This document shows positions 16,222 through 19,377 of a stretch of 64,000 bases of DNA, piece by piece (the first letter of the stretch is position 1; each line of letters starts with the position of its first letter). Location: NCBI RefSeq assembly GCF_003334765.1, contig NZ_QOWT01000006.1. One strand, 5' to 3'. The stretch comes from Escherichia coli. Its GTDB lineage: Bacteria; Pseudomonadota; Gammaproteobacteria; Enterobacterales; Enterobacteriaceae. The notes below the pieces were generated by a model, which saw only the letters and a list, made by a program, of their open reading frames with translations, searched no databases and was not told where the DNA came from. A program made the translations under genes and the position numbers.

Positions 16222-16548
16222 TTAAAATTTTCGCACCCATTTACCGTTTATCCCTTGTACATATTCCCCCGGTTTGGCCCGAGCTACGAGCTTTTGCCCG
16301 GCGAGTTTCGCGATATCATCTACCGACACATTATTTTGCTTTGCCAGTTGTTGGTAACTCGCTTTACGTTCGGCATTAATGTCGGCTACTAATTTCTCTG
16401 TTTCAGCATCCGTTTTCAGCGCAACCAGATAACCGTAAAATGTTTCACCTACCCGCCCCTGAGTTCTGGCTTCATCCAGAGTCAATGCCATTACATTGCT
16501 GCTTACCAGCCCAACAAGAAACGCACAAAGAAGTAATGTTTTCTTCAT
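16222..16548 (-). CDS. ydbL: DUF1318 periplasmic protein
   Basis: Track ORF trimmed to ATG at 16546-16548 (MKKTLLLCAFLVGLVSS signal peptide), 108 aa. Confidence 0.85.
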   Translation of the reverse strand: MKKTLLLCAFLVGLVSSNVMALTLDEARTQGRVGETFYGYLVALKTDAETEKLVADINAERKASYQQLAKQNNVSVDDIAKLAGQKLVARAKPGEYVQGINGKWVRKF

Positions 16549-16555
16549 CATCACC

Positions 16556-16741
16556 TCAGAAAAGATCGCTACGAGTTTCAAGCAGCTCTTCGACATCTTT
16601 GTCTGCCTTGATGATGATCTCATGCTCAATTTTAACGTTCATATTGATAGTGATCGGTTCCTTAGGTGCAGCGACTTCAATGCGAGGCGTACAGCCAACC
16701 AGCATAAAAGATGACGTCAACGCAGCCAGTAAAATTTTCAT
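16556..16741 (-). CDS. ynbE: small lipoprotein
   Basis: 61-aa ORF with lipobox (LVGC); ATG overlaps ydbH stop (ATGA). Confidence 0.85.
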   Translation of the reverse strand: MKILLAALTSSFMLVGCTPRIEVAAPKEPITINMNVKIEHEIIIKADKDVEELLETRSDLF

Positions 16742-19377
16742 TGTTTTTCCTCACACTCTTTTCCTTGCGGACAGTCATTTCCCGGCAGACGTGCGTTCTG
16801 CTCCAGCCATGCCTGGAGATTATCGCCAAAGCGTAAACTGCGCCACAGCGTAAAAATATTCTCTTCATGATGGTAATTAAGGTTTACCGTACCGCTTTTA
16901 CCATCAACGCGACTGGTACCTGTAATGTTGGCCTGCATGGTTAATAAACCGAGATTATCTAAATTAATTTTTGTCGATGAACGGCTAATTTCCATATAGC
17001 GCAACCAGTTAATTGCTGAACCCGCAGTCATATTGTCTTTTACCACCGCATCCGCAGTGTCTTTATCCAGTCGCAATGTCATCGGCCCGCTATTCGCCAG
17101 CCAGCCATCTTTCACAATCCATTTTTCATTGTTCAGCCATAACGGCAGTGCACCACTAAATGCCCCGGACATGGCGAATTGTTTCGGATTGACGGCGCTA
17201 ACCAGTTCGCTGGATGAGAGATTATTCAGCCGCAACAGCGCCGGGTCATGTTGCGGCATACGTAATTGTTTCATCAGTACGTTACCGCCTAACACATCGA
17301 CGCTAACATCAGTCAACAGCAAGGGTTCTTCTTCAGTCCACGGATAACGCCCTTGCAAATCAGCCGTAATATTTTTCGCTGTCACCAGATTAATCACTTC
17401 GGCAATTCGCAACGTAACGGGGCCGCGAGTCCCCAGATGCCAGGCTCCATCGGCAAAACGGAAAGGCAGGACAAAATCGACACCGTTAACCTGATTATCT
17501 GGCATCCAGGCACTACCGCCTTTCAACACGCCGTGTCCTCCCGCGCGGAATCCTTGTTCAGGCGCAGCAGAAAATGCAACCTGAGCATACAGTTCACCAT
17601 CGCGTAAGTTCATCTTCCAGTCGGGTGGCACCAGCGGCTGGAATACGGTCAGTGATTGTTTAGGCCACCAGGCGTTACCGCGCAGACGAATACCGTCCCA
17701 GCGACCATTTACCCGAACCGGGCCAATCTCACCAGCATGTAAATCGCCTTTAAAGAGGAAATAGGTAGGATCGCGCCCATCGACGCTAAATTTTAAGGTT
17801 GATGGCGGTAACACACTGCCGCCAGTGAACAGCGTTTGCCCGGCGTCCAGTGACAGCGCGCCGCTAAAGGAGGGATGCTGTGCGTCACGTACCCAGACGA
17901 TGGGCTTGTCGAGAATTAATCGCGGCTTTTCTACCGTCATCGTACCGTATTGTAACTGGTCGAAACCGGTGGAGAGATCGGTCAGCGTAATCGTGCTGTC
18001 ATGCCACTCACCTTTTCCTGCGACATCCCAGGTGGCATTCATCGGTGTAAAACTCCCTTTTCCCCAGTAGCGCCACTGCCAGCGGCCAGCGTCAGGGAGA
18101 AAATCATTCGCCAGCCCATCCATATGCAGCACGAAATCGCCCAGTTCATTTTCATGCGCCTGCAAGATGGCCTGCAAACGTCCGTCAACACCACGTTGGG
18201 TGACTTTTACACCCGCTAAAGGCCAGCGGATTTCATCGATGTCCAGCGAATCGATGACTCTTCCCTTTGAACGAAGTAACGCGCCTGGCTCAAAGGTCAG
18301 CGTTGGGTCAGACAGACTTCCACTTAGCTGCGCAGGTAAACGGGCATATAAAATGAGGTCCGCCTGTTTCGCTTCACCGGTCAGCTGCAGAGGCAGCTGA
18401 CTGTTATCCATGCTTAATTTTCCTGGGCCAAAATTAAGCACCGCGTTGCCCTTACCCGCTTGCCCCTGGGTCAGCACACTCAGTCGTCCGCTGACCAGAG
18501 CGTTCTCAAGCCCTGCCTGCCAGTTGTCGACTTTGACACCCAGTCGGCCACTCAAAGGAAAACCTGCATACGGCCAGCTCCAGCGACCATCGCTTACGGT
18601 CAATTGTTGACGAGTAATTTGCCACGGCAAATCGAGCAACGGATCGCCGTTATCCCGTGCCAGCACGATCAATTGCCCGCTATTTTCCTGCCAGTCCAGC
18701 TCGGCATCCACCAGTGACGGTTCCTGCGGCAAGTTTAACGTCGCAGTAGCATGCCCACTTACAGGAAGTCCATCCGGCACGAGCGGCATAGCAAATTCCC
18801 CCACCAGTTTTACCGGCGGCTGATTTTCAAACGCGACGACATCCAGTTCGCTGACTGTAAGTTGTTGCCCTTTCAGCTGGCCTTGAAATTTAACTTTTTC
18901 GCCCTGATAACGCAGTTGCTGGATATCAGAGGTTAATGCGAGAGAGAGTTTTCCCTGCCATTCCTGCCAGGGAGAAAAAATCAGTTTATCGATATTGATC
19001 CAGGTGTTAGGCAGCATGGCCTGCCACTGCGCGAGTGTTTTTGGAGCGGCTGGCGATTGCTCCGTCTGCGGCAATTTCGCCAGACAAGCAGAATCAAGTT
19101 CTACCGTGCCGACGTTCAATAACCAGCGGCTGGGATGTGAAAGGCTGGCGTTGGTGATATGCGCAAGCTGACAATCTCCCACCAGATAACGGAGATCGGG
19201 AATGATTAAACCTTTACGCGTAATGCGTGGGCTTTCATCTAATGCAATACGTGTCCCGAGCGGTAGCCAGATGCCCGCCAGCGTGGGAACCCACAGCCCG
19301 AGCGTCATCAGCAGCGTCAACGGCACAAGAATAATCAGTAATAACAGCGCGAGAACGGCTTTATATTTACCCAGCAT
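16738..19377 (-). CDS. ydbH: AsmA-like large inner-membrane-anchored periplasmic protein
   Basis: 879-aa ORF with N-terminal transmembrane helix; synteny with ynbE-ydbL. Confidence 0.9.
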   Translation of the reverse strand: MLGKYKAVLALLLLIILVPLTLLMTLGLWVPTLAGIWLPLGTRIALDESPRITRKGLIIPDLRYLVGDCQLAHITNASLSHPSRWLLNVGTVELDSACLAKLPQTEQSPAAPKTLAQWQAMLPNTWINIDKLIFSPWQEWQGKLSLALTSDIQQLRYQGEKVKFQGQLKGQQLTVSELDVVAFENQPPVKLVGEFAMPLVPDGLPVSGHATATLNLPQEPSLVDAELDWQENSGQLIVLARDNGDPLLDLPWQITRQQLTVSDGRWSWPYAGFPLSGRLGVKVDNWQAGLENALVSGRLSVLTQGQAGKGNAVLNFGPGKLSMDNSQLPLQLTGEAKQADLILYARLPAQLSGSLSDPTLTFEPGALLRSKGRVIDSLDIDEIRWPLAGVKVTQRGVDGRLQAILQAHENELGDFVLHMDGLANDFLPDAGRWQWRYWGKGSFTPMNATWDVAGKGEWHDSTITLTDLSTGFDQLQYGTMTVEKPRLILDKPIVWVRDAQHPSFSGALSLDAGQTLFTGGSVLPPSTLKFSVDGRDPTYFLFKGDLHAGEIGPVRVNGRWDGIRLRGNAWWPKQSLTVFQPLVPPDWKMNLRDGELYAQVAFSAAPEQGFRAGGHGVLKGGSAWMPDNQVNGVDFVLPFRFADGAWHLGTRGPVTLRIAEVINLVTAKNITADLQGRYPWTEEEPLLLTDVSVDVLGGNVLMKQLRMPQHDPALLRLNNLSSSELVSAVNPKQFAMSGAFSGALPLWLNNEKWIVKDGWLANSGPMTLRLDKDTADAVVKDNMTAGSAINWLRYMEISRSSTKINLDNLGLLTMQANITGTSRVDGKSGTVNLNYHHEENIFTLWRSLRFGDNLQAWLEQNARLPGNDCPQGKECEEKQ

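Follow-up and report, generated by a model that had tools for sequence, protein, structure and literature searches.

The ydbH-ynbE-ydbL locus of Escherichia coli is an ordinary operon whose products very probably form one bridge system

The three genes at positions 16,222 to 19,377 of the window, that is, of the whole 64,000-nucleotide stretch of E. coli DNA that was analysed, are very probably the chromosomal ydbH-ynbE-ydbL operon, whose products work as one YdbH-YnbE-YdbL bridge system (Table 1). We found no evidence against this identification of the locus. With 100% identity to chromosomes of E. coli, the three-gene DNA was found in 5410 of the 5426 complete genomes of this species. On a 100%-identical E. 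coli chromosome, RefSeq annotates these three CDSs with the same boundaries, the same 4-nt overlap and the same 7-nt gap. The gene names, sizes and junctions in the initial annotation were right to the base, as judged from the open reading frames, the sequence and RefSeq. The operon of E. coli K-12 has the same neighbours, ldhA and feaR, and does not differ from that in the window; its genes are b1381-b1383. The K-12 locus described by Kumar, Davis and Ruiz 2024 and by De'Ath et al. 2026 is the same locus, with the same CDSs and junctions. The length of YdbH is printed as 869 aa in PMC11126948; the ORF and RefSeq both give 879 aa. When the entire window was compared with Rfam, no RNA family matched within 16000-19600. 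The locus is an ordinary, reference E. coli operon, and its gene content, the complex, the structure of YdbL and the translational coupling have already been published. The window adds nothing new on YdbH-YnbE-YdbL, although the feature had been read correctly. The remark that the operon was only recently studied was an understatement, because the operon, the complex, a crystal structure of YdbL (PDB 28oj) and the ATGA coupling are all in the literature.

Table 1. Positions of the genes and of the signals discussed in the text
Feature	Position	Strand	Details and source
ydbH CDS	16738..19377	minus	ATG start, TGA stop at 16740..16738, 879 aa; ORF list
ynbE CDS	16556..16741	minus	ATG 16741..16739, TGA 16558..16556, 61 aa; ORF list
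ydbL CDS	16222..16548	minus	ATG at 16548, 108 aa; ORF list
Candidate sigma-70 promoter for ydbH to ydbL, TTGAAA-15 nt-AAAAAT	19488..19514	minus	in the 206-bp ldhA/ydbH divergent spacer; Shimada 2014 genomic SELEX (PMC3946193), located here
ATGA, overlap of ydbH stop (TGA) and ynbE start (ATG)	16738..16741	minus	sequence; termination-reinitiation coupling site per PMC6728339, PMC10666635
ynbE Shine-Dalgarno GAGGA	16748..16752	minus	within the ydbH 3' end, 6 nt before the ATG
ynbE-ydbL junction	16549..16557	minus	GAGGTG Shine-Dalgarno 16557..16552 over the ynbE stop; 7-nt spacer GGTGATG 16555..16549
Inverted repeat, perfect 18-bp, 5-nt loop	16048..16088		between convergent ydbL and feaR, overlaps the feaR stop codon

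YdbH matched the Pfam family PF11739 (YdbH-like) over residues 14-862 of 879 (3.6e-291) and the NCBIfam equivalog NF007971 with 1400.9 bits (cut-off 824). Hydrophobic windows of 19 residues (Kyte-Doolittle above 1.6) start only at residues 1-22. By its sequence, YdbH is an AsmA-like, repeating beta-groove protein with one N-terminal hydrophobic helix as the predicted inner-membrane anchor, and the remainder is predicted to be periplasmic. The repeating beta-groove (beta-taco) fold is that of published AlphaFold models (PMC11126948); a PDB sequence search with YdbH gave no match, so that no solved relative was detectable by sequence. Ruiz 2021 found YdbH to be redundant with YhdP and TamB, the loss of all three being lethal (PMC8593681). 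Inner-membrane YdbH and the outer-membrane lipoprotein YnbE form an intermembrane bridge, and YdbL modulates YnbE multimerisation; both YdbH-YnbE cross-links and YnbE multimers were shown experimentally (PMC11126948; 10.64898/2026.03.16.712125). Published work on P. aeruginosa concerns PA5307/PA5306 (PMC12447247).

YnbE matched Pfam PF13617 (YnbE-like lipoprotein, Lipoprotein_19; 3.7e-16), and NCBIfam had no model for YnbE or YdbL at E <= 0.001. It has a signal peptide, a lipobox LVGC at residues 14-17 (Cys17) with Thr at +2, and a mature protein of 45 residues. Cys17 and the core residues P29, I30, N33, N35, E41 and D47 are invariant across eight homologues. In lipoproteins, the residue after the Cys governs outer-membrane sorting (the +2 rule). 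With no inner-membrane retention signal at +2, YnbE is expected to be sorted to the outer membrane. This location was demonstrated by fractionation (PMC11126948). YdbL matched Pfam PF07027 (DUF1318; 2.2e-31). Its Sec signal peptide ends in VMA, the next residue being L at 22, and residues 22-108 match PDB 28oj_A, 'Probable chaperone-like protein YdbL' (8.5e-53), a chain that is mature YdbL. These Pfam matches bear out the initial reading of the products as an AsmA-like protein, a lipoprotein and a periplasmic DUF1318 protein. De'Ath 2026 solved the structure of YdbL and showed by mapping that it binds YnbE at the C-terminal helix (10.64898/2026.03.16.712125). The residues of YdbL that are invariant in seven homologues include E35, N58, W104 and K107, which coincide with residues found functionally important in that study. 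Co-purification of the three products had been proposed as a check, and equivalents of it have been published, namely in vivo cross-linking of YdbH to YnbE and direct binding of YdbL to YnbE.

YdbL might be mainly a negative regulator, which sequesters YnbE (anti-assembly) and is cleared by DegP, and not a bridge-promoting chaperone. Consistent with this, a yhdP tamB mutant is killed when YdbL is overproduced, and extra YdbH plus YnbE reverses the lethality; YdbL is also undetectable at native levels, and free YdbL is degraded by DegP (PMC11126948; 10.64898/2026.03.16.712125). However, cells without YdbL contain less YdbH and more YnbE multimers, and multicopy ydbH-ynbE needs YdbL for full rescue (PMC11126948; 10.64898/2026.03.16.712125). 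Variants of the predicted YdbH-YdbL interface are partly defective, suggesting a docking role (10.64898/2026.03.16.712125), and ydbL adjoins ynbE in every distant locus that we looked at, as expected of a needed partner. We regard a mainly negative role of YdbL as unlikely.

The bridge system very probably works as follows. The N-terminal helix of YdbH sits in the inner membrane, and its long beta-groove reaches into the periplasm. YnbE, lipidated at Cys17, goes to the outer membrane; its beta-strand or strands augment the YdbH groove at its C-terminal end and complete a bridge between the two membranes. Acyl chains of phospholipids are thought to slide along this YdbH-YnbE bridge. Soluble periplasmic YdbL binds the C-terminal helix of YnbE, limits runaway self-stacking of YnbE and aids its docking on YdbH, whereas a surplus of YdbL titrates YnbE away; in vitro, DegP degrades YdbL that is free. 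The whole is one of three redundant routes, together with YhdP and TamB-TamA. Lipid would pass through the groove; the case made for lipid transport in PMC11126948 is a genetic one. Alternatively, the known complex might be a structural tether or a contact site, or might regulate outer-membrane homeostasis, and not be a phospholipid conduit. The predicted length of YdbH with one YnbE, ~180 Å, falls short of the periplasm, which is ~250 Å wide (PMC11126948), and in P. aeruginosa YdbH overexpression without YnbE brings no benefit and more partners are suspected (PMC12447247). On the other hand, YhdP and TamB, with which YdbH is redundant, are themselves proposed phospholipid transporters, and outer-membrane lipid homeostasis is disturbed when YdbH, YhdP and TamB are all lost (PMC11126948, PMC8593681). 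YdbH shares its AsmA-like, repeating beta-groove architecture with lipid-transfer proteins of eukaryotes that are named in PMC11126948. Furthermore, a periplasm-spanning YdbH-YhdP fusion does not need YnbE to work, in keeping with a bridge for which length is important (PMC12447247). A complex that does not conduct phospholipids is very improbable, and the suggestion of an envelope lipid-transport-type complex, made in the initial annotation, is backed by published work (PMC8593681, PMC11126948, 10.64898/2026.03.16.712125).

Orthologous operons had also been proposed as a check, and the order YdbH-like, Lipoprotein_19, DUF1318 proved to be kept in distant homologues. We looked up six distant YdbL homologues (32-50% identical) and that of Salmonella (71%) on their contigs. 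A Lipoprotein_19 gene lies directly upstream of the ydbL homologue in six of the seven look-ups; the seventh (L009) is divergent, with a 106-aa lipoprotein that has a YnbE-like core and no Pfam match on record. A YdbH-like gene lies further upstream in the four loci in which the upstream gene is complete (L002, L006, L008 and L010). The junctions are tight: -4, -4, -1 and +2 nt between the ydbH-like and ynbE-like genes, and 0-37 nt between the ynbE-like and ydbL-like genes. The three genes follow this order on one strand in Salmonella (L008) and in metagenomic L002, L003, L004, L005, L006, L007, L010 and L011. In the distant homologues that keep both the three-gene order and the tight junctions, YdbL is 37-50% identical.

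The candidate promoter in the ldhA/ydbH spacer was not picked up by our consensus scan, which allowed spacers of 16-18 nt only; its match to the consensus is weak. The scan for promoters and terminators covered 15900-19700, and its results were compared with shuffle expectation. Promoter-like and terminator-like sites inside the unit were not in excess (4 versus 3.8 and 4.0 expected), and none lies at the junctions. Weak promoter-like matches on the minus strand were seen in ydbH (17249..17221) and in ydbL (16357..16330). There is no sequence sign of independent transcription of ydbH, ynbE and ydbL, and the three are stated to be co-transcribed (10.64898/2026.03.16.712125). A literature search on envelope-stress regulation of ydbH gave nothing relevant. 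Downstream of the unit, folding of the 196-nt ydbL-feaR spacer gave -60.6 kcal/mol (z = -5.9), and the inverted repeat in it is probably a shared 3'-end hairpin of ydbL and feaR. Neither the scan nor the fold gave a canonical intrinsic terminator downstream of ydbL, and no T-run follows the repeat on either strand, so that the repeat is a putative terminator at which transcription may end. The 18-bp palindrome was also considered as a repeated element; this was rejected because it is unique in the window.

The ydbH/ynbE junction carries the sequence features of a termination-reinitiation pair, the ATGA and a GAGGA 6 nt upstream, and the overlap is kept in a 94%-identical E. coli and in the distant homologue L002/L003. 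Reporters of Huber 2019 and 2023 revealed that the ATGA overlap strictly couples ynbE translation to that of ydbH (PMC6728339, PMC10666635). An early stop of ydbH translation abolished ynbE translation in these assays, and the Shine-Dalgarno was strictly essential for reinitiation (Huber 2019, PMC6728339). Its removal cost three other pairs 60-90% of reinitiation, whereas ydbH/ynbE depended on it strictly (PMC6728339). The E. coli pairs hyfHI and astDB, which also overlap by 4 nt, resemble ydbH/ynbE in the ATGA, in a Shine-Dalgarno within the upstream gene and in strict dependence on the upstream gene. Huber 2019 invoked a stable local RNA structure to explain why ynbE is not initiated de novo (PMC6728339). 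However, the segment from -99 to +30 of ynbE folds no more stably than shuffled controls (z = +0.73), so that this structure was not reproduced as a statistical signal. The ynbE-ydbL spacing lies within the class of -8 to +10 nt, which Huber 2023 treats as predictive of coupling (PMC10666635). The annotated ydbL start is closely preceded by another in-frame ATG (16551..16549) and by a GTG, use of which could shorten the gap to 4 or 1 nt; of these starts, the annotated one is better spaced from the GAGGTG Shine-Dalgarno. The tight spacing of the three genes is statistically unremarkable: overlaps occur in ~15% of co-directional gene pairs of prokaryotes, the 4-nt overlap being the commonest type (PMC6728339), and E. 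coli has 820 unidirectional pairs at -8 to +10 nt (PMC10666635). That the genes are adjacent by chance, independently expressed and functionally unrelated has next to no probability and is refuted by published genetics, cross-linking and coupling assays: although neither tight spacing nor an ATGA overlap is rare, so that they are weak proof alone (PMC6728339, PMC10666635), and weak promoter-like matches lie inside ydbH and ydbL, these matches are at chance level (4 versus 3.8), the three-gene order is kept even in homologues whose YdbL is only 37% identical, ynbE translation is lost when ydbH translation ends early (PMC6728339), and YdbH, YnbE and YdbL act together (PMC11126948; 10.64898/2026.03.16.712125).

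As for expression of the bridge system, one mRNA from the ldhA/ydbH spacer would give rise to the three envelope proteins. Translation of ynbE relies on ribosomes that terminate at ydbH in the ATGA overlap, and it requires the Shine-Dalgarno. Through the 7-nt gap and the Shine-Dalgarno that lies over the ynbE stop, ydbL is probably coupled to this flow of ribosomes as well, and in this way the ratios within the complex would presumably be kept. Strict reinitiation coupling should hold YnbE synthesis at or below that of YdbH, which is awkward with several YnbE per YdbH; in the current model, the difference between ~180 Å and ~250 Å is made up by a stacked YnbE multimer on YdbH (PMC11126948). 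If this cap holds natively, the bridge might be 1:1 with a further outer-membrane partner, or YnbE might be far stabler than YdbH, or ynbE might be initiated de novo depending on the condition. No unusually stable RNA covers the ynbE start (z = +0.73), which leaves room for the last of these routes. The architecture of the junction would then set the stoichiometry of the bridge, beyond YdbL and DegP, a proposal that we consider quite improbable.

How phospholipids are delivered to the outer membrane of Gram-negative bacteria was a long-standing question, and YdbH-YnbE-YdbL is one of three redundant answers to it. TamB-TamA is like YdbH-YnbE in that an inner-membrane AsmA-like groove protein needs an outer-membrane partner, and it is redundant with YdbH (PMC11126948, PMC8593681). 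The partner of TamB is the Omp85 beta-barrel TamA, whereas that of YdbH is a lipoprotein of 45 residues. Furthermore, TamB-TamA works without a YdbL-like periplasmic modulator, and TamB is longer than YdbH (10.64898/2026.03.16.712125). YhdP, like YdbH, is AsmA-like, has its inner-membrane anchor at the N-terminus and is one of the redundant putative transporters of phospholipids (PMC8593681). Whereas YdbH is predicted to be too short to span the periplasm alone, YhdP is not, and it meets the outer membrane by its own C-terminal hydrophobic helices, whereas YdbH does so via a separate lipoprotein (PMC12447247). When YhdP's C-terminal region is grafted onto YdbH, YnbE becomes dispensable (PMC12447247).

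The ydbH-ynbE-ydbL feature is real, was correctly interpreted and is already known in detail. Gene boundaries were taken from listed ORFs and from the minus-strand sequence read directly, and the initial annotation was correct in every detail of gene size, ATGA overlap and 7-bp gap. The Shine-Dalgarno sequence GAGGA lies inside ydbH, 6 nt 5' of the ynbE ATG on the minus strand, and GAGGTG, just 5' of ydbL, shares bases with the ynbE stop codon; ydbH itself has merely a weak, badly spaced AGGA. Two further in-frame start candidates lie directly 5' of the annotated ydbL ATG, and the longest frame given by the ORF finder starts from a TTG at 16629 (135 aa, overlapping ynbE). 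Of these starts, the annotated one (108 aa) best matches the Shine-Dalgarno spacing and the signal peptide, with a small ambiguity remaining.

Features of the ydbH-ynbE-ydbL locus and other RNA signals in the window
Feature	Position	Strand	Detail
ydbH CDS	19377..16738	-	ATG start, 879 aa
ynbE CDS	16741..16556	-	61 aa
ydbL CDS	16548..16222	-	108 aa
ydbH/ynbE overlap ATGA	16741..16738	-	ydbH stop TGA 16740..16738, ynbE start ATG 16741..16739
ynbE stop codon	16558..16556	-	
ynbE/ydbL spacer GGTGATG	16555..16549	-	7 bases, between ynbE stop codon and ydbL ATG
ydbL start candidate GTG	16554..16552	-	
ydbL start candidate ATG	16551..16549	-	
Folded ynbE start segment	16712-16840	-	-99 to +30
Shimada promoter motif	19514..19488	-	
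feaR/ydbL spacer	16030-16225		196 nt
Inverted repeat TAACTAATTGGCGTTGCA	16048-16088		perfect, 18 bp, 5-nt loop; between convergent feaR and ydbL, overlapping feaR stop codon
FnrS match	30121-30238	-	134.8 bits
MicC match	25189-25309	-	125 bits
McaS/IsrA match	33616-33711	+	118.4 bits

E. coli chromosomes match the 3.5-kb segment at 100% identity. Of 5426 complete E. coli genomes, 5418 have it, and in 5410 the match covers at least 80% of the segment. Five of the 5421 matching places are in records labelled plasmid, not chromosome; either the replicons may be mislabelled or plasmids may carry large pieces of chromosome. The three CDSs are also those of the RefSeq annotation, where the neighbours are a divergent ldhA and a convergent feaR. 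YdbH matches YdbH-like PF11739 (3.6e-291) and the NCBIfam YdbH equivalog (1400.9 bits), YnbE matches YnbE-like lipoprotein PF13617 (3.7e-16), and YdbL matches DUF1318 PF07027 (2.2e-31). A single hydrophobic segment (residues 1-40) is present in YdbH, and the signal peptide of YdbL ends in VMA. Cys17 of YnbE closes a lipobox, LVGC. YnbE has Thr at +2, and therefore outer-membrane sorting is predicted by the +2 rule. These simple features agree with the predicted locations, and together with the domain matches they bear out the proposed AsmA-like, lipoprotein and DUF1318 periplasmic classes. PDB 28oj_A, 'Probable chaperone-like protein YdbL', covers YdbL residues 22-108.

Published work has addressed the function of these proteins. 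YhdP, TamB and YdbH are redundant, and triple loss is lethal (Ruiz et al. 2021, PMC8593681). Kumar, Davis and Ruiz 2024 (PMC11126948) showed that the three genes form an operon, that YdbH function requires YnbE, that in vivo YnbE can be cross-linked both to itself and to the C-terminus of YdbH, and that YdbL affects YnbE multimerisation; the predicted length of YdbH plus one YnbE is too short for the periplasm. De'Ath et al. 2026 (10.64898/2026.03.16.712125) determined the YdbL structure at 2.12 A and traced its binding to the YnbE C-terminal helix. They found that free YdbL is degraded by DegP in vitro and that surplus YdbL kills a yhdP tamB mutant, except when YdbH and YnbE are raised as well. 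The published bridge account is best supported. In it, YdbH is anchored in the inner membrane and bears a beta-groove, which the outer-membrane lipoprotein YnbE lengthens by beta-strand augmentation; periplasmic YdbL caps or chaperones YnbE and so would keep the ratio right as the bridge assembles. Synthesis of YdbH, YnbE and, presumably, YdbL is coupled through the layout of the mRNA. The genetics and cross-linking of these three papers uphold the proposed envelope lipid-transport-type complex; the bridge stoichiometry and lipid passage along the bridge are inferred, the latter from genetics. That the proteins form a tether, not a conduit, is unlikely because YdbH is redundant with other AsmA-like transporters. 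Independent, unrelated genes, the result that would have overturned the initial annotation, are refuted.

Huber et al. 2019 (PMC6728339) used ydbH/ynbE among five native E. coli pairs and showed strict coupling via termination-reinitiation, with an essential Shine-Dalgarno; coupling declines with intergenic distance (Huber et al. 2023, PMC10666635). The 2019 study invoked local RNA structure as the block to de novo ynbE initiation. We folded the fragment cloned there, and it had no extra stability versus dinucleotide shuffles (z = +0.73), so that structural occlusion is not evident as a statistical signal. The ynbE Shine-Dalgarno was mostly unpaired in the minimum-free-energy structure. Thus, this explanation is not supported by a simple fold test. 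Strict coupling also means that YnbE synthesis cannot exceed YdbH synthesis, a ceiling that sits awkwardly with multi-copy YnbE stacking. Both are small discrepancies, worth a sentence and not a project.

In a motif scan, promoter-like and terminator-like motifs within the locus occurred at chance frequency, with none at the junctions. In Shimada et al. 2014 (PMC3946193), 'ydbH--ydbL' is entered with a constitutive sigma-70 promoter situated in the ldhA spacer; we located its motif. The fold of the feaR/ydbL spacer has an energy of -60.6 kcal/mol (z = -5.9), and the spacer holds a second, long and imperfect stem besides the inverted repeat, which is unique in the window and is followed by no T-run on either strand. 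The repeat is probably a shared 3'-end hairpin; it is not a canonical intrinsic terminator, and the transcript end point is inferred. FnrS, MicC and McaS/IsrA, all known small RNAs of E. coli, were also matched at Rfam gathering scores.

Comparison with orthologous operons showed that gene order and short junctions are kept in distant homologues. An exhaustive search of representatives gave 1254 YdbL matches at E <= 0.001; from these we looked up the contigs of six distant homologues (32-50% identical) and Salmonella (71%), independently of the literature. A Lipoprotein_19 gene was directly upstream of the DUF1318 gene in six of seven, and a YdbH-like gene was upstream in all four loci with a complete upstream gene on the contig (L002, L006, L008 from Salmonella, L010). 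The ydbH/ynbE junction is -4 nt in L002/L003 and in E. coli (a 94%-identical lineage included); for Salmonella it is -1 nt and for L010 +2 nt. The ynbE/ydbL junction is 0 to 37 nt. Therefore, the genes stay closely linked, although not always through an exact ATGA. The seventh locus (L009, 504-1480) is a divergent variant on a contig too short to reveal an upstream YdbH-like gene. In its 106-aa lipoprotein, the YnbE-like core EPITLNINLRIERE is joined to a long Ser/Pro-rich tail where YnbE has the C-terminal helix and terminal Phe; the lipoprotein gene overlaps by 4 nt the gene for a 219-aa protein that contains two DUF1318 domains. The lipidated Cys and core P29, I30, N33, N35, E41 and D47 are invariant in YnbE homologues, as are E35, N58, W104 and K107 in YdbL homologues, the latter four functionally important (De'Ath 2026). 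This conservation agrees with the published interfaces.

Several database records vary at this locus. In the 94%-identical lineage (NZ_AP026114.1, 33-617 and 4392-4575), ldhA is annotated as a truncated pseudogene, and the place of feaR downstream of ydbL is taken by a gene for a 'beta strand repeat-containing protein'; the operon junctions are unchanged. In E. coli SCPM-O-B-7615 (NZ_CP144926.1, 4225-5702), IS1A truncates ydbH after ~240 codons, and ynbE, ydbL and feaR are absent; this natural loss fits redundancy with YhdP and TamB. Four gene calls (P0001, P0004, P0006, P0007; 155-173 aa, 96-100% identity) carry PF13617 and PF07027 as apparent YnbE-YdbL fusions. Each comes from just one or two metagenome or SRA contigs, and a length of 172 aa agrees with the loss of 1 nt from the 7-nt junction. 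They probably reflect misassembly or rare frameshifting and not a genuine fusion family. Among known systems, the P. aeruginosa orthologues PA5307 and PA5306 show the same behaviour as those of E. coli (PMC12447247).
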